Below are positions 2,272-19,981 of a stretch of DNA of 24,326 nt, in pieces. Source of the DNA: a virus (lineage: Duplodnaviria > Caudoviricetes); IMG/VR virus record IMGVR_UViG_3300033067_002141, positions 1 to 24,326 of that record. The stretch is one strand, 5' to 3'. A model generated the notes under the pieces. It worked only from the letters and a program-made list of their open reading frames with translations, ran no database searches and was not told where the DNA came from. Made by a program: the position numbers and the translations under genes. The first letter of the stretch is position 1. Every line of letters starts with the position of its first letter.

Positions 2272-2486
2272 TGCTTCGCCTCTTCGATCTGGCTCATGTC
2301 TTCTATGTATGCCAGCGCGATCACCTCACCGTAGTCCCTGTCCTCGTGTATGTTCAACAGCCACCTGTTGGACTTCAGCGCGCTCGGTCTCACCGATACG
2401 CGCAGTGCCTCGAAGGGGGCTTCCTGCCACAGGATCCCGTGCAGTCCGTGCGCCCCTTCTTCCAGTGATCCACCCTTACATCGCAT
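2235..2486 (-). CDS. hypothetical protein, paralog of 1981..2238 (83 aa)
   Basis: ATG at 2486 (MRCKGGSLEEGAHGL) aligns with the paralog N-terminus; the longer track start overlaps the vWA gene. Confidence 0.65.
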   Translation of the reverse strand: MRCKGGSLEEGAHGLHGILWQEAPFEALRVSVRPSALKSNRWLLNIHEDRDYGEVIALAYIEDMSQIEEAKQWLLAVTLARSE

Positions 2487-3747
2487 CAGAGTACAGCCGC
2501 ACGCACTGCCCCCGGAGCGGTTGGAACCCGTCGTTGTCCAGGATGCCCCAGAGAAGGGGTACGTCCGCCGGCGGCAGGTCGTAGGAGCTCTCGATGTACC
2601 CATCCGTGAGATACACCACCGCAGTGGGCTTGTACTGCTTCGCGGCAATGTACTGTGCAACACACGACACCGTCGTGCCACCGCCGCCCTGGGGCTTCAT
2701 GATGTGCGCCATCTGCTCGTACTTGTCCGGAGTGAACACCTGCTCGCTGTTCACCTCCGTGTCCCACCAGATCACACGCACAGCGTCGGGCCGCACGCTC
2801 TGGCAGATGCGCACGATCTCACCGAAGATGATCGGGTACGTGCCGCCCATGGACCCGGACGTATCGCATGCCACGATGATCTCGCCCGTCGCCTCGCTGA
2901 AGTGCGTGGGCATGAGGAACCCACTGGCCAGCATGCGCTTGTTGGGCCGGCGATAGGTGGAGTAGTCATCGCCCTCACACACCGCTGTGAAGAACTCGCG
3001 GAAGTGATCCTGCCAGTTGGTGTCGCGCTCCTTGATGATGTTGTCGATGTCCATGCCGCCCTTGCCCTCACCTCGCAGCTTCTTGGCCAGCATGTCACCC
3101 TGGCGGATGGCGTCGTCGATTGCGCGCCCGATCTCCTGCTTCTGCTCCTCCGTGAGTGCTCCCTCCCCGTCACCCTCCTCGGGCTGCACGTGTTCATCGA
3201 GGGGCCCGCCAGGCTGGCCGGCGCCGCCACCCTTGCCGCTGCCCTTGCCGCTGCCCTTGCCGCCACCTTGCTTCTGCTGCTTGAGCAGATCGAGCAGCAC
3301 TTCGAGGAAGTCCATGCCACGGTACTTCTCGTCGAGACAGATGCCTGGCAGGTTGGGCACCGTGGCGAAGTCCTTGGCGCTCGTGTCGGCCGCCTTGAGG
3401 CGTGTGTTCATGTCCACGATCATCAGGTTGACGACATAGTCCATCGCCATGTTGGACAGCATCCCGTGCTTCTTCATCACGCCGGGGTAGCTGGTGCAGT
3501 GCTTGAGCGCCTTGTGCAGACACTCGTGCGCCACGACGAAGCGCATCTCGGTGCGGCTGAGCTTCATGACGAAGTCCTCGCCATACCAGGTGTTGTACCC
3601 ATCAGTGGCGGCCGTGGGGAACTTGGGATCGATGCGGGTCTTGCCGATCATGGCCAGCCCTGAAAGAAGCGCGAACTCCTTGTTGCGCGCGAAGTCGATG
3701 TGGCACGATGTGACACGATCGAGGGGGGACATTTTTTCGTAGCTCAT
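2476..3747 (-). CDS. DUF2201-type putative metallopeptidase with C-terminal vWA domain
   Basis: PTAATDG motif, HECLH (HExxH), NMAMD..VN, Gly/Lys linker, MIDAS DTSGS, GGGGT and YLTDG; SD AGGAG. Confidence 0.88.
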   Translation of the reverse strand: MSYEKMSPLDRVTSCHIDFARNKEFALLSGLAMIGKTRIDPKFPTAATDGYNTWYGEDFVMKLSRTEMRFVVAHECLHKALKHCTSYPGVMKKHGMLSNMAMDYVVNLMIVDMNTRLKAADTSAKDFATVPNLPGICLDEKYRGMDFLEVLLDLLKQQKQGGGKGSGKGSGKGGGAGQPGGPLDEHVQPEEGDGEGALTEEQKQEIGRAIDDAIRQGDMLAKKLRGEGKGGMDIDNIIKERDTNWQDHFREFFTAVCEGDDYSTYRRPNKRMLASGFLMPTHFSEATGEIIVACDTSGSMGGTYPIIFGEIVRICQSVRPDAVRVIWWDTEVNSEQVFTPDKYEQMAHIMKPQGGGGTTVSCVAQYIAAKQYKPTAVVYLTDGYIESSYDLPPADVPLLWGILDNDGFQPLRGQCVRLYSDAM

Positions 3748-14529: not shown

Positions 14530-15177
14530 GTGACTTCCCCAAGCCACGCTCCCAGTGTACACTGCCAAAACATGTTTGACCACCTGCTGAACATCGACTC
14601 CCCAACGCTCGACTTCCCGGCCGAGGGCTTCACCGCTGTCGCGGATGCACAGCCTCACGAGGTCATCACTGCCCAGGTCGGCACCATGGACTGGCTCGAA
14701 GAGATCGGGGCCCCCATCACCAGCCCGATGGACAATTTGCAGAAGGAAGCGGCCCGCTCCGCGTTCCTGGCCGTAACCACAGGCGCTCCACTACCCGACG
14801 CTCAGAAACAAGCGCTCCTGAAGATCAAGGGGCCGGCAGCCGTGCAGCAGCTGACCTCCATGCTGGACGCATATGACTGGGAGTTCGTGGAGCAGGCCAA
14901 GGAACTGCGCGGGTACATCACCGCCAAGATCCTCGAGGAAACCAAACACCCCGACCCACGGATCCGGCTCAAGGCGCTCCAGATGCTCGGCAACATCGCC
15001 GAGGTCGGGCTGTTCGAGGAGCGCGTGAAGATCACCAAGGTGGACGCCACCGCAGAGGAATTGGAGAAACGTATTCGGGAGAGGCTGGCCAATTGGGTGC
15101 CGGCCGCCGCGCAGAACCAGACGGTCACTGACGTCGAGCTGAAGGAAGCCACCGGTGAGCGCCCGACAACCCCTTGA
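14530..15177 (+). CDS. putative terminase small subunit
   Basis: SD GGGAGGAG before the GTG; directly upstream of and overlapping TerL; helical, with an RLKALQMLG..VGLF motif. The call is mainly positional. Confidence 0.6.
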   Translation: MTSPSHAPSVHCQNMFDHLLNIDSPTLDFPAEGFTAVADAQPHEVITAQVGTMDWLEEIGAPITSPMDNLQKEAARSAFLAVTTGAPLPDAQKQALLKIKGPAAVQQLTSMLDAYDWEFVEQAKELRGYITAKILEETKHPDPRIRLKALQMLGNIAEVGLFEERVKITKVDATAEELEKRIRERLANWVPAAAQNQTVTDVELKEATGERPTTP

Positions 15178-17599
15178 CCTGACCCCCAGCGCGATCGCAG
15201 CGCTGCTGCAGGCGCTCCCCACCATGCCCGTGGCGGAGAAGGCCGAGCTGCTGGCCGACCTGGAGTTGCTCGAGCAAAAGACAAAATACCAGCGCGCACG
15301 TGACAGCTTCCCGGATTTCTGCCGGGCCGTGTACCCGGACTGGAAGGAAGGCCCCCACCACCGCCACCTGGCGCCCAAGCTGCACGACGTGGCGCTCGGA
15401 ACGAAGACCCGGATGTCCGTCAGCATGCCCCCGCGGTTCGGAAAGAGCGAGTCGATCGCGTTCTTGTTCGTCGCCTGGTACCTTGGACATCACCCCGGGC
15501 ACCACATCATGATGGTGACGCATACCGCCTCGCTGTCCGCGGACTTCGGGCGAAAGGTGCGCAACCTCATCGACGCGCCCACATACCAGGCGATCTTCCC
15601 AGACACCAAGGTGTCTCGCGACAAGACGGCCAGTGACAACTGGACCACGACGCTCGGGGGCAAGTACCTGGCGATCGGTATCGGCGCCAACGTGGCCGGC
15701 CACGGCGCCCACCTCCTGATCTGCGATGACCTGGTGTCCGAGCAGGTGATGCTGACCTCCAGCCCCGACGCGGCGTTCGCCACGGCCTGGGAGTACGTGC
15801 AGGTGGGCCCGCTGCAGCGCCTGATGCCCAACGGGCGCATCGTGATGATCGCCTGCATGACAGCCGAGACCCGCGTGTTGATGGCGGACGGGACTGAGAA
15901 AGAAATGCAGCACATCAAGGTAGGCGACAGCATCGCTACTTATGACGCTGGGAAGATCTCCACCTCTCGTGTGACAAACTGGATCAAGCATCCTCATGAT
16001 TTTATTTACAAAATAAGAACAACTTCGGGTAGAATTGTCCGGGCAAACAAGAGACACCCTTTTCTTGTGGATCGCAACGGAGTCAGGACATGGGTACGAG
16101 TGCAGGACTTGAAGGTGGGGGACTGCTTGGTGGAGGCTGTTCAACCGCAGGCTGCGGGCGGCCACACAAAGCCAGGGGACTGTGCAGCGCCTGCTACAAA
16201 CGAAAGCTCAGTGCCGAAGGAAGAGTCGGAACTCAACGCCACACCGGGCACTGGGGGAAGTGGAAAGGGGCTGTATGCGCTGTTGATGGGTGCGGCAGTC
16301 CAGTCTCCGCCAAAGGACTTTGTCACAGCTGCTACGGCAAGAAGTACTGGGCGGAAGGAAAACGGCGTCCAACGACTTCTCAGAAACGCGAGAGCCATCT
16401 CAAGCATCGGTACGGCATTTCTGTGCAAATTTACGACGACATGCTGGCGGCGCAAGGAGGCTGCTGTGCCGTATGCAAGCAGCCTCCCAACAACACAAAC
16501 TCACGGGCTGGGCAGGAGCCAAAGCTGTATGTCGACCACTGCCATGACACCGGTAGGGTCCGAGGATTGCTCTGCAACCACTGCAACTTGGCCATCGGAT
16601 ACGCGCACACAGAAGCAGGACTGTTGGCCGCGGCCGAGTACGTACGCTACCACAGCGTCAGCGATTGCTGAGATCGCCGAAGACGGGTTTGAGCCCGTCT
16701 TCGATATGGAAGTAGCGCGTACCGAGAACTTCATCGCTAACGGCGTGGTGAGTCATAACACGCGCTGGGGAAAGAAAGACCCGATCGGCCGCGCGCTGGC
16801 CTGGGCGCAGAACAACCCCGACAGTCCGCAGTGGGACGAGGTGAGATTCCCGGCGATCCTGCCGAGCGGCAAGAGTCTGTGGCCCGAGCAGTGGCCGATC
16901 GAGCAGCTGCTGGCAAAGAAGGCCAGCATGTTCCCCCAGTTCTGGGCCGCCCAGTACATGCAGGAGCCCACCTCGGAGGAGGGGGCGGTGATCAAGCGCG
17001 ACTGGTGGAAGATCTGGGAGTCGGACGACCCACCCAAGTGCGAGTACATCATGATGTCGGTGGACACGGCGCACGACACGAAGAGCTCCTCTGACTACAC
17101 CGCAATAACCACGTGGGGAGTATGGTCAGACGAGCGCCGGGACTACAAGCCACAGTTGATACTTTTGGATGCGTTCAAGGACCGGATGGAGTTCCCGGAG
17201 CTCAAGAAGATAATGCTGAAGCATTACAAGAACTGGGAACCGGACGCGGTGATCATCGAGAAGAAGGCCGCCGGGGCGCCGCTGATCCAGGAGCTGCGGG
17301 CAGTTGGAGTACCGGTGCAGGAGTTCAGCCCGAGCCGGGGAAATGACAAGCGCGTGCGCTTGAATGCTATCGCAGACCTGTTTTCTTCTGGTATCGTATG
17401 GGTCCCCGACACACGATGGGCCCGTGAAGTGATGGACGAAGTGGCTGAATTCCCGAACGGCGAGCACGATGACTATGTGGACACAACTTCACAAGCCCTG
17501 TTGCGTTTCCGCCAGGGCGGGTTCGTGACGCTCGACACCGACGACACAGACGATGACCGGCTGCGCACACCGCAGAGCCGGGCGTACTACAGGATCTGA
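15155..17599 (+). CDS. terL: terminase large subunit with intein (814 aa precursor; 512 aa after splicing)
   Basis: Walker A MPPRFGKS, Walker B LICDDL, motif C IA|TRW split by the intein, RNase H-like nuclease motifs SVDTA..SDYTA, EKKAAG and HDDYVDT. Confidence 0.95.
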   Translation: MSARQPLDLTPSAIAALLQALPTMPVAEKAELLADLELLEQKTKYQRARDSFPDFCRAVYPDWKEGPHHRHLAPKLHDVALGTKTRMSVSMPPRFGKSESIAFLFVAWYLGHHPGHHIMMVTHTASLSADFGRKVRNLIDAPTYQAIFPDTKVSRDKTASDNWTTTLGGKYLAIGIGANVAGHGAHLLICDDLVSEQVMLTSSPDAAFATAWEYVQVGPLQRLMPNGRIVMIACMTAETRVLMADGTEKEMQHIKVGDSIATYDAGKISTSRVTNWIKHPHDFIYKIRTTSGRIVRANKRHPFLVDRNGVRTWVRVQDLKVGDCLVEAVQPQAAGGHTKPGDCAAPATNESSVPKEESELNATPGTGGSGKGLYALLMGAAVQSPPKDFVTAATARSTGRKENGVQRLLRNARAISSIGTAFLCKFTTTCWRRKEAAVPYASSLPTTQTHGLGRSQSCMSTTAMTPVGSEDCSATTATWPSDTRTQKQDCWPRPSTYATTASAIAEIAEDGFEPVFDMEVARTENFIANGVVSHNTRWGKKDPIGRALAWAQNNPDSPQWDEVRFPAILPSGKSLWPEQWPIEQLLAKKASMFPQFWAAQYMQEPTSEEGAVIKRDWWKIWESDDPPKCEYIMMSVDTAHDTKSSSDYTAITTWGVWSDERRDYKPQLILLDAFKDRMEFPELKKIMLKHYKNWEPDAVIIEKKAAGAPLIQELRAVGVPVQEFSPSRGNDKRVRLNAIADLFSSGIVWVPDTRWAREVMDEVAEFPNGEHDDYVDTTSQALLRFRQGGFVTLDTDDTDDDRLRTPQSRAYYRI
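15854..16759 (+). mobile_element. intein (302 aa) in the TerL ATPase domain
   Basis: Block A CMTAETRVLMADG, block B IVRANKRHPFLV, WVRVQDLKVGD, block F VFDMEV..TENFIANG, block G VSHN followed by Thr+1. Removal restores IVMIATRWG. Confidence 0.95.
16090..16671 (+). CDS. zinc-finger / Endonuclease VII-type (His-Me) putative homing endonuclease in an alternative frame inside the intein
   Basis: SD GGAG 7 nt before the ATG at 16090; two Cx4C...GLCxxCY repeats; YGIS...MLAAQGGCCAVC...LYVDHCHDTGRVRGLLCNHCNLAIG, the recombination endonuclease VII signature. Confidence 0.88.
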   Translation: MGTSAGLEGGGLLGGGCSTAGCGRPHKARGLCSACYKRKLSAEGRVGTQRHTGHWGKWKGAVCAVDGCGSPVSAKGLCHSCYGKKYWAEGKRRPTTSQKRESHLKHRYGISVQIYDDMLAAQGGCCAVCKQPPNNTNSRAGQEPKLYVDHCHDTGRVRGLLCNHCNLAIGYAHTEAGLLAAAEYVRYHSVSDC

Positions 17600-17602
17600 C
17601 CC

Positions 17603-19981
17603 ATGGCCACCAACGTCGACAAAGCGCTCTACCAGGCCCCGGTCGGGATCGAGCAGATCCCCGCGGAAGAGATCACGGTGGAGATCATTCCCGACGAGGC
17701 GGAGCTCGACGACAGCGCCACGGAAGAAGCTGCAGAACCTGCGTTCGGCGCGAACCTCGCGGACACGCTCCCGGAAGGGGAGCTGCTGTCGATCGTGGGG
17801 GACCTGCGCTATGAGATCGACAATGACCTGAGCGCTCGGGGTGACTGGGAGAAGGTCTACGTCAAGGGGCTGAAGTTGCTCGGGTTGAAGCCCCAGGATG
17901 TGACTGAGCCCTGGGATGGCGCCTGCTCCGCGGTGCACCCGATGATCACCGAGGCGATCGTACGGTTCCAGTCCGAGGCCGTCATGGAGACGTTCCCGGC
18001 CGCCGGGCCGGTGCGCACGCGCATCATCGGAAAAGAAACTCCCGAGAAGAAGGAAGCCGCCAAGCGGGTCGAAACGGACATGAATTTCCAGCTCACTGAG
18101 GTGATGCAGGAGTTCCGCCCCGAGCACGAGCGCATGCTGTGGACGCTGCCTGGCGCCGGCAGCGCGTTCAAGAAGGTGTACTACGACCCGTCCATGGGGC
18201 GCCAGGTCTCGATGTTCATCCCCCCGGAAGATGTGATCTTGCCCTACGGCATGACGGACATTTCCACGTCGCCGCGCGTCACGCACCGCATGCGCAAGAC
18301 GAAAAACGACATTGAGAAGCTGATCAAGGCTGAGTTCTACGTCGATGCGGAACTCGGGGACCCCGTGAAGTCGATCACTGACGACGTCCGGAACCGAAAA
18401 GACCGTGAAACAGGTCTCTCAGACTTGAATTTCGAGCACTACGAGCTGTACGAGGCCCATGTGGACCTGATCGTCGAGAGCGACCCGCTCGGCGAGGAGG
18501 GAATTGCCCTTCCGTACGTCCTGACGTTCGACAAAGCCACCGACAAGGTGCTCGCGCTGTACCGGAACTGGAAGGAAGGCGACGAATTCAAGCTGAAACG
18601 CCAGCATTTCGTGCACTACCAGTACATCCCAGGCTTCGGGGCGTACGGATTCGGGCTTTTTCACCTGATTGGCGGCTACGCCGAGTCCGCGACAAGCATT
18701 TTGAGGCAGTTGGTCGACGCCGGTACCCTCAACAACTTGCCCGGGGGCATGAAAACCAAGGGGCTGCGCGTCAAAGGCGATGATACCCCGATCGCGCCAG
18801 GTGAATTCCGTGATGTGGACATCGCCAGCGGCTCGCTGCGCGACAACATCATGCCGCTGCCGTACAAAGAGCCGAGCAGCGTGCTGGCGCTGCTGCTGGA
18901 CAAGATCATCGAGGAAGGCCGGCGTTTCTCCGCAGCCGCGGACCTGAAAATCAGCGACATGAGCGCGAATGCGCCGGTGGGGACCACCCTGGCGCTGCTG
19001 GAGCGCACGCTCAAGGTGATGTCGGCTGTCCAGGCGCGCATCCACTTCAGTCTGAAGCAGGAGCTCAAGCTCCTGGCCGGGATCATCCGGGACTTCACGG
19101 ACGTGGACTACGCCTACGACGCGGACACCGACATGCCCCGGGCCCGTCGGGAGGACTTCAAGCACACGGACATCATCCCGGTCAGCGATCCGAACGCGGC
19201 CACGATGAGCCAGCGGGTTGTGCAGTACCAGGCGGTGATCCAGCTGGCGCAGATGGCGCCAGACATCTATGACCTGCCCGTGTTGCACCGCGAGATGCTC
19301 GAGGTGCTCGGGATCAAGAACGCGGCCAAGATCCTGCCGCTGCCGGAAGACATGAAGCCGGTGGACCCGATCAGCGAGAACATGGCTATCCTGAAGGGCA
19401 AGCCAGTCAAGGCGTTCATGTACCAGAACCACCAGGCGCACCTGACGGTGCACATGGCCATGCTGCAGGACCCCCAGATCGCGCAGATGATGGGGCAGAG
19501 CCCGGCCGCAGCCCAGATGGCTGCCGCTGCGCAGGCGCACATTGCCGAGCACCTGGGATATGCGTACCGGGCCCGGGTCGAGCAGGTTCTCGGCGCCCCG
19601 CTGCCGCCGCCGGACGAGCCGATGCCGCCGGAAGCCGAAGTCATGCTCAGCCAGCTCACGGCGCAGGCCGCCACGCAAGTGCTGCAGCAGGCCCAGGCGC
19701 AGCAGGCTCAACAGCAGGCACAGCAGCAGGCACAGGATCCGGTGCTGCAGTTGCAGGCGAAGGAAGTTGCGATCAAGGAAGCGGACGTCAAGCGCAAGCA
19801 ACAGAAAGACATCCTCGACGCCGCGGCGCGGGAAGACGATCTGGCGCTCAAACGTCAGCAGCTCACGGGCGTGCAGGAGAAGGAAGGCGTCTCCCTGGGT
19901 CTGGAGATCGCCCGGGCGAAGGCTGAGATGGCACTGGCCGCCAAAGAGGTTGAGCAGCAGAACACAGGAGCGGCGGGATGA
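17603..19981 (+). CDS. portal protein (P22-like), Gln-rich C-terminus
   Basis: 792 aa directly after TerL; EPWDGACSAVHP, GSAFKKVYYD, YGFGLFHLIG, LVDAGTL.NLPGG and PVGTTLALLE motifs typical of podovirus portals. Confidence 0.9.
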   Translation: MATNVDKALYQAPVGIEQIPAEEITVEIIPDEAELDDSATEEAAEPAFGANLADTLPEGELLSIVGDLRYEIDNDLSARGDWEKVYVKGLKLLGLKPQDVTEPWDGACSAVHPMITEAIVRFQSEAVMETFPAAGPVRTRIIGKETPEKKEAAKRVETDMNFQLTEVMQEFRPEHERMLWTLPGAGSAFKKVYYDPSMGRQVSMFIPPEDVILPYGMTDISTSPRVTHRMRKTKNDIEKLIKAEFYVDAELGDPVKSITDDVRNRKDRETGLSDLNFEHYELYEAHVDLIVESDPLGEEGIALPYVLTFDKATDKVLALYRNWKEGDEFKLKRQHFVHYQYIPGFGAYGFGLFHLIGGYAESATSILRQLVDAGTLNNLPGGMKTKGLRVKGDDTPIAPGEFRDVDIASGSLRDNIMPLPYKEPSSVLALLLDKIIEEGRRFSAAADLKISDMSANAPVGTTLALLERTLKVMSAVQARIHFSLKQELKLLAGIIRDFTDVDYAYDADTDMPRARREDFKHTDIIPVSDPNAATMSQRVVQYQAVIQLAQMAPDIYDLPVLHREMLEVLGIKNAAKILPLPEDMKPVDPISENMAILKGKPVKAFMYQNHQAHLTVHMAMLQDPQIAQMMGQSPAAAQMAAAAQAHIAEHLGYAYRARVEQVLGAPLPPPDEPMPPEAEVMLSQLTAQAATQVLQQAQAQQAQQQAQQQAQDPVLQLQAKEVAIKEADVKRKQQKDILDAAAREDDLALKRQQLTGVQEKEGVSLGLEIARAKAEMALAAKEVEQQNTGAAG

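Follow-up and report, generated by a model that had tools for sequence, protein, structure and literature searches.

Inteins with an endonuclease VII (EndoVII)-like nuclease in frame 3 were reported as new by Gosselin, Arsenault and Gogarten in a 2025 preprint (bioRxiv 10.1101/2025.01.02.630785), the main text of which names the phages Affeca, Keitabear and Sedona and calls the mobility of the group ambiguous. Here, we describe an intein of the same layout, with an EndoVII-like open reading frame (ORF) in frame 3, on the same strand and between the splicing regions, in the large terminase gene (terL) of a virus of the Caudoviricetes. The DNA is the linear IMG/VR virus record IMGVR_UViG_3300033067_002141, positions 1 to 24,326, and this whole stretch of 24,326 nucleotides is referred to as the window. 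We put at roughly 85% the probability that the element is a terminase intein with an out-of-frame EndoVII-type nuclease that is likely translated separately and likely drives homing. The layout is real and widespread, but the architecture is already described in the 2025 preprint; the original prediction, made from the letters of the window alone, had pointed to reports of alternate-frame nucleases in a few actinobacteriophage insertions, and the architecture is indeed published for the same family. What we add is a start codon built from a codon of a splicing motif, grounds for rejecting a frameshift in the family, and evidence that members of the family have moved recently among environmental phages. 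The main text of the preprint makes no mention of "start codon", "frameshift", "synonymous" or "ribosom", and our evidence on the start site, on selection in each frame and on environmental homing goes beyond that text, although its supplements may hold such data.

The insertion site was named TerL6-f by Kelley et al. (2016; PMC5050341), in work on mycobacteriophage clusters B3 and B4 in which the intein of phage Chandler spliced readily in a reporter and cleavage was tested for two other inteins only. The Chandler intein has the same site and the same hidden nuclease ORF as the window; the second frame is unmentioned in the main-text passages on these inteins in that paper (PMC5050341). The text of Phillips et al. 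(bioRxiv 10.64898/2026.09.14.751524) describes a cyanobacterial dnaX intein whose LAGLIDADG nuclease lies out of frame. Like the window, it has a +2 ORF over a disordered linker, a Shine-Dalgarno (SD)-like motif upstream and purifying selection in the nuclease frame only; unlike the window, it carries a LAGLIDADG rather than an EndoVII nuclease and resides in a bacterial host gene. Arsenault et al. (2025; PMC11855218) described the ShiLan domain, in which a phage methylase conceals an HNH nuclease. This, too, is an out-of-frame nuclease in a stop-free insertion, but as described there it differs from the window in having no splicing domain, no detectable SD, a nuclease of the HNH family and a non-essential host gene. 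Finally, Fang et al. (2018; PMC6083498) described F-CphI and the DHHRN homing endonucleases; F-CphI is free-standing, unlike the window nuclease, and the word "intein" is absent from the main text of that paper. No experimental test of translation or cleavage was found for the family in the literature covered, which leaves out subscription journals and bioRxiv supplements.

The terL gene (positions 15155..17599, plus strand) encodes a large terminase of the Terminase_6 type, with matches to Terminase_6N, Terminase_6C and phrog_38, as an 814-aa precursor; excising the intein sequence leaves 512 aa. The intein (15854..16759, plus strand) is 906 nt or 302 aa long, extends from Cys1 to a terminal His-Asn with Thr as the +1 residue, and has zero stops in the terL frame. 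It is inserted before Thr-Arg-Trp at site TerL6-f, which lies in the ATPase coupling motif and is also occupied in phages Chandler, Phlyer and Sedona. The flanks of the insertion and the 512-aa TerL remaining after its removal had been given correctly in the original prediction, with respect to coordinates, motifs and target site. Likewise, the intact splicing blocks seen at both ends were borne out by a Pfam Intein_splicing match in the intein frame (E = 7.6e-16) and by the presence of all class 1 residues (C1, H68, D284, H301, N302 and the +1 Thr). Block B has Asn at a position where Thr is usual. Among 83 aligned inteins, C1, N65, H68, P69, F70 and W80 are invariant.

A structure predicted from the 83 aligned inteins has confident ends, with a pLDDT (predicted local distance difference test) score of 87–98, and a middle without confident structure. 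The N-terminal splicing region (15854..16141, plus strand), which contains Cys1, the block-B His68 and the Trp80 motif, was modeled with confidence (pLDDT 88–98 over residues 1–100), and the C-terminal splicing region (16646..16759, plus strand), with the block-F Asp284 and His301-Asn302, was delimited by alignment, predicted structure and Foldseek. Together, the ends match the Hint fold of solved inteins (Foldseek E = 4e-8 to 1e-7). Between them lies a stop-free linker in the terL frame (16142..16645, plus strand) that is predicted to be disordered (pLDDT < 50 at residues 115–220) and whose amino acids are not conserved. The central part of the intein had been described as ~190 codons that are stop-free and lack a LAGLIDADG or HNH motif. 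Both properties held, and a Pfam search of the intein frame gave no LAGLIDADG or HNH family and no nuclease family; the length had to be reduced, since the 194-codon nuclease ORF overlaps splicing sequence at both ends, leaving a free linker of ~170 codons (about residues 97–264 in the model). The intein is not of the canonical full-length kind, its nuclease being out of frame with the splicing domain. Like its relative in phage Chandler, the intein likely splices, leaving the 512-aa terminase.

The hidden ORF (16090..16671, plus strand; −1 (+2) frame) encodes a 193-aa nuclease of the endonuclease VII type (DHHRN), as judged from Pfam, PHROG, alignment and a structural model. The SD, the two Cys repeats and the EndoVII signature first noted in this ORF were all recovered. 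Pfam Endonuclease_7 (PF02945) matched nuclease residues 102–186 with E = 2.8e-18 (66 bits, against a cut-off of 23.6), PHROG 2914 (endonuclease VII) matched residues 17–190 with E = 9.6e-31, and a GGAG is found at −11..−8. As had been expected of a profile search of both frames, the splicing domain was found in the terL frame and Endonuclease_7 in the shifted frame. The complete CxxC ... D-H-x-H ... R ... CxxC-N pattern is present, which gives the window nuclease the full DHHRN set of F-CphI as listed by Fang et al. (CxxC, D-H-x-H, Arg and CxxC-N). The catalytic core residues C126, C129, D149, H150, H152, R158, C162, C165 and N166 (16465..16587, plus strand) are invariant in 78 aligned proteins, which had been picked for intact motifs. 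Upstream of the core are two Cys-rich repeats (nuclease residues 17–35 and 63–81; 16138..16332, plus strand), predicted Zn-binding modules that may serve in DNA recognition, in which C63, C68 and C78 are invariant in the same proteins. The nuclease model, based on the 78 aligned proteins, has a mean pLDDT of 88.

The ATG of the nuclease is made up of the last base of intein codon 79 and the TG of Trp80, in the motif that follows block B, while its stop falls at intein codon 272–273, within the strand that comes first in the C-terminal splicing region. The start had been placed correctly, and the stop, at first put where block F begins, does lie in the C-terminal splicing region. The nuclease is listed in none of six annotated phage records (0/6).

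With the N-terminal splicing region as query, viral contigs gave 334 matching stretches, metagenome contigs 241 and prokaryotic genome assemblies 16. (The seed patterns of these searches lie upstream of the nuclease start.) The best 80 of the 334 viral matches, the best 80 of the 241 metagenome matches and all 16 prokaryotic matches entered the family set, to which five annotated phages and further matches were added; after removal of 77 duplicates and 9 incomplete sequences, 136 distinct complete inteins were kept. Because related sequences are not independent, counts over this set overstate their statistical strength. In all 136 inteins the length is a multiple of 3 and the terL frame is stop-free, and Thr-Arg-Trp follows the intein in all but one. 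Nuclease sequence is present in 135 of the 136, always in the +2 frame and never in frame (0/136), so that the alternative frame is conserved among homologs.

This shared frame offset excludes assembly error as the origin of the layout. Two compensating errors that shifted an ordinary in-frame nuclease out of frame would explain the odd layout of the window, and nothing beyond that layout favors them; against them stand the identical offset in 135 of 136 inteins, including those of cultured, annotated phages, and the contigs of a public sequencing run (X1, possibly the window's own sample) that cover the stretch with no gap or differing letter. A contig of a second run from a separate study (X2) crosses the start codon ungapped. 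The compensating indels that had been raised as a possible refutation are therefore absent from the contigs of the public runs and at odds with the family, and we consider their probability negligible. The short side of an intein-skipping joint in run X2 spans just 22 letters; this joint, probably derived from another phage, was not used. Run X2 and a third run (X3) contain only small shares, from which no habitat is deduced, and no RNA run was listed as carrying the stretch, which has no bearing on expression.

The top annotated-phage matches for both the window intein and the window nuclease are Sedona, Keitabear and Affeca. The Sedona intein (E = 1e-34) and nuclease (E = 2e-39) share with the window the Thr-Arg-Trp site, the frame offset and the Trp-overlapping start, and are 57% identical in the N-terminal splicing region and 52% identical in the nuclease. 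These matches and the shared site place the window in the family of Gosselin et al. The terL C-terminal extein (C-extein) of the window is only 15–19% identical to those of the phages named in the preprint, and the actinophage nucleases are shorter than the window nuclease with its two Cys repeats.

In 11 inteins, part or most of the nuclease has been removed by in-frame deletion, a form of decay that a homing cycle would be expected to produce. A stepwise in-frame loss of the nuclease in which the start codon is kept is seen among closely related inteins of 510, 738 and 909 nt (loci L154, L155, L156 and L231, compared with L157 and L159). In one intein (L319, 1801–2616), the only such case, the nuclease frame ends prematurely at a stop after 49 aa, and in phage AlanGrant (L144:1501–2400) the second His of D-H-x-H is absent.

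Selection in the two frames was compared by the ratio of nonsynonymous to synonymous substitution rates (dN/dS), obtained by simple pairwise counting, which is not an overlap model. Disjoint pairs were grouped by identity into three bands of 15, 4 and 33 pairs; 10 of the 136 inteins, without intact motifs, were excluded from the selection tests. For the three bands in turn, the nuclease frame gave ratios of 0.20, 0.22 and 0.19, and the part of the terL frame over the nuclease gave 1.16, 1.05 and 1.04. Most differences between pairs fall at the third codon position of the nuclease. The purifying selection that had been expected in the nuclease frame (~0.2, against ~1.0–1.2 in the terL frame) was thus observed.

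The terL frame shows a different kind of constraint. Codon pairs that would make a terL-frame stop are absent from the nuclease genes of 94 representatives (xTA before A or G, 0/223; xTG before A, 0/581). Synonymous shuffles of these representatives gave 1.7 terL-frame stops per gene, whereas the frame is open in 94 of 94 with an intact nuclease. For the window nuclease gene, which has zero terL-frame stops, 2.6 are expected from synonymous shuffles (3% of which are open) and 4.2 from codon-order shuffles (1.5% open). Among 16 other EndoVII genes, 15 have 4–13 stops in the equivalent frame, and the sixteenth is itself hidden in a terminase. These data support purifying selection on the nuclease frame and a terL frame that is constrained over the nuclease only to stay open; the passive, stop-free linker of the original prediction agrees with a dN/dS of ~1 and with open frames in 136 of 136 inteins.

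How the nuclease is made can be approached from the sequence around its start. The base before the invariant Trp codon is A in 124 and G in 12 of the 136 inteins, giving ATG or GTG in the nuclease frame. Since Glu, Lys or Gln before Trp force a purine, a fair test is provided by the 22 representatives with a freely degenerate codon at this position; all 22 end in a purine, compared to 332 of 572 such codons before extein Trp codons. The SD-like GGAG of the window (16079..16082, plus strand) consists of the Gly76 codon and the next base. This Gly codon, four residues before the Trp, has A or G as its third base in 86 of 96 representatives; for the other Gly codons in the splicing domain the figure is 276 of 703. 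The base after it is G in 80 of the 96, giving GGAG or GGGG at the same spacing from the start. Among codons of the N-terminal splicing region in which a third-position T would produce a nuclease-frame stop, 617 of 1803 ahead of the start have that T, as against 0 of 305 beyond it, and all 136 nuclease-frame ORFs run for at least 22 codons. The fixed start codon, the biased SD position and the sharp stop boundary point to internal initiation, by which the nuclease is likely translated separately from the Trp-overlapping codon. RNA folding around the nuclease start gave nothing unusual (z = 0.31).

The original prediction had allowed for either internal initiation or a −1 frameshift, and only the former has held up. 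A programmed −1 frameshift from the terL frame would produce a nuclease fused to the N-terminal half of the terminase and intein. The nuclease frame is indeed the −1 frame, and the window has a canonical slippery heptamer at 16056–16062, over the His-Pro-Phe codons, where no stop interrupts the −1 frame between 16033 and the ATG; this counts against separate initiation as the sole route, and a minor frameshift product may be made in the window itself. However, the heptamer of the window occurs in only 2 of 136 inteins, and in 74 of 136, including 4 of the 7 closest relatives of the window in one search, a stop interrupts the nuclease frame after the His-Pro-Phe motif and ahead of the start codon. 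A canonical slippery site is found in the usable stretch in just 10 of 94 representatives, at scattered positions, and a frameshift leaves both the fixed start codon and the SD bias unexplained. On account of the blocking stops and the rarity of the heptamer, we rejected frameshifting as the route used by the family, and regard it as very unlikely to be how the nuclease is mainly made.

Internal initiation could also take place on a separate, short transcript from a promoter inside the intein, using the same start codon but not the terL mRNA. Intron-borne phage nucleases can have their own promoters, and a single weak sigma-70-like site is found at 15971–16000, 90 nt before the ATG; a single site does not exceed chance (0.4 ± 0.6 expected), and we think such a transcript improbable. 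Initiation within the terL mRNA is the reading retained below.

To assess mobility, we compared the C-extein with its best 80 relatives. One of the 80 terL loci was too short for scoring and was left out; the remaining 79 are all empty at the site, with the flanks joined (79/79). In a tree built from the C-exteins of 113 filled and 71 empty alleles, the two sets having been fetched with different queries, the nearest neighbors of the window are empty, and its clade has 8 filled and 20 empty members. There are 87 intein pairs (122 inteins) with at least 90% identity, and in 41 of these the C-exteins are less than 80% identical; near-identical inteins were found in terL genes just 64–70% alike. 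In one pair the inteins are 99.8% identical and the C-exteins 64%, with a common flank of only 8 bases upstream and 5 downstream. Across the family, C-extein identity between carriers goes down to 13%. These patterns indicate that the intein family moves between host alleles, and by the same sequence evidence, together with the full DHHRN residue set that it shares with F-CphI, the nuclease would cleave the empty terL allele at or near the insertion site. Phages Sedona (L143) and Fosterous (L145) have C-exteins that are 97% identical and inteins at the same site that are 67% identical, representing different family members.

A nuclease of the T4 junction resolvase family inside a packaging gene could instead have been domesticated for a phage function, such as junction resolution or help with the packaging cut, and no longer be mainly selfish. 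This fits poorly with its absence from all 79 scorable terL relatives, its loss by in-frame deletion in some carriers and the near-identical copies in divergent hosts, and proteins with EndoVII motifs include a proven homing endonuclease, F-CphI. We regard domestication as a very doubtful explanation compared to homing.

We propose that ribosomes translating terL would make the 814-aa precursor, from which the intein and its junk linker would be spliced out to give the 512-aa terminase. Other ribosomes would initiate inside the same mRNA, at the ATG on the invariant Trp codon and with the SD-like sequence supplied by the Gly codon, and make the 193-aa nuclease. Upon co-infection, the nuclease would cut an intein-free terL at or near Thr-Arg-Trp, after which repair would insert a copy of the intein. 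Over the nuclease gene, selection on the terL frame would be solely for openness. Since the splicing and nuclease functions overlap in the DNA at both ends, they travel as one unit. With somewhat less assurance, we favor the further view that a splicing motif was recruited as the nuclease start, its Trp codon as start and its Gly codon as SD, joining two separately translated proteins in one mobile unit with a nuclease output that is independent of splicing, and that the family is old and large (hundreds of environmental matches) and probably still homing across terminases less than 20% identical.

Several observations weigh against this picture of a separately made nuclease that drives homing. 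The fold match of the nuclease is weak: the top five Foldseek rows are Hpy99I and T4 EndoVII, with E = 0.0097–0.13 (best E = 0.0097 for Hpy99I and 0.018 for T4 EndoVII) and template modeling (TM) scores of ~0.25–0.3, all below 0.3, and the Foldseek search of the nuclease model gave nothing at E ≤ 0.001. Filled alleles cluster on the tree, with 19 changes against ~57 in shuffles, and intein and extein identities correlate (Spearman 0.75), both of which imply that much of the inheritance is vertical. The intein of the window has no very close relative, the best nucleotide identity in the nuclease region being 76%, so that recent homing is evident for other members of the family and not for the window's copy. 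Metagenome contigs can also be mis-joined at shared inteins; a mis-joined contig, however, requires near-identical inteins in different terL genes of one sample, which carries the same implication as movement.

Other arrangements of inteins and nucleases were seen in related loci. A contig with another terminase type (TerL_ATPase + TerL_nuclease; L017:3–2171) has a stop-free insertion of ~230 aa without an intein match, and inside it a 194-aa endonuclease VII ORF in the −1 frame (L017:704–1288), an intein-less, ShiLan-like arrangement in an essential gene. When relatives of this hidden nuclease were sought, the terL frame retrieved nothing but the contig itself, and the nuclease frame yielded no close match. 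In a close terL relative of the window (L090:761–3346), an intein at a different site, in the Walker B region, includes a 228-aa ORF in the +1 frame (L090:1620–2306), a second, independent out-of-frame arrangement; from its motifs we take this ORF to be HNH-type, and it had no Pfam match above the cut-off. Four loci (L001, L002, L060 and L061) have a second intein of ~1 kb upstream in terL, in the Walker A or B region, beside the out-of-frame intein; its nuclease-like middle is in frame and appears LAGLIDADG-like by eye.

In the window, terL is directly followed by a portal gene (17603..19981, plus strand; phrog_1216, E = 9.3e-21), and therefore sits in a normal packaging module. A 215-aa ORF (14530–15177, plus strand) overlaps the terL start, in the position of the small terminase subunit; it had no PHROG match, and its Pfam matches were weak and HEAT-like only. 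Elsewhere, a 423-aa ORF (2476–3747, minus strand) matches phrog_1314, labelled HNH endonuclease (E = 9e-78), and the opposite strand has a 437-aa open frame at 2350–3663.

Directly observed in these sequences are the dual coding, a selection that differs between frames, the fixed start and the sporadic spread. As a clean natural example of dual coding, with one frame kept only open and the other kept functional, they allow measurement both of what the overlap costs and of the "splicing domain first, nuclease later" model for the origin of inteins. The fixed start, the SD bias, the selection in each frame and the near-identical copies in divergent hosts provide an answer, by inference, to the questions of translation and movement left open by the 2025 preprint. 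Annotation pipelines miss hidden nuclease genes of this kind, and if the reading given here is true, many of the phage inteins now classed as having a long linker and no nuclease would be active homing elements.

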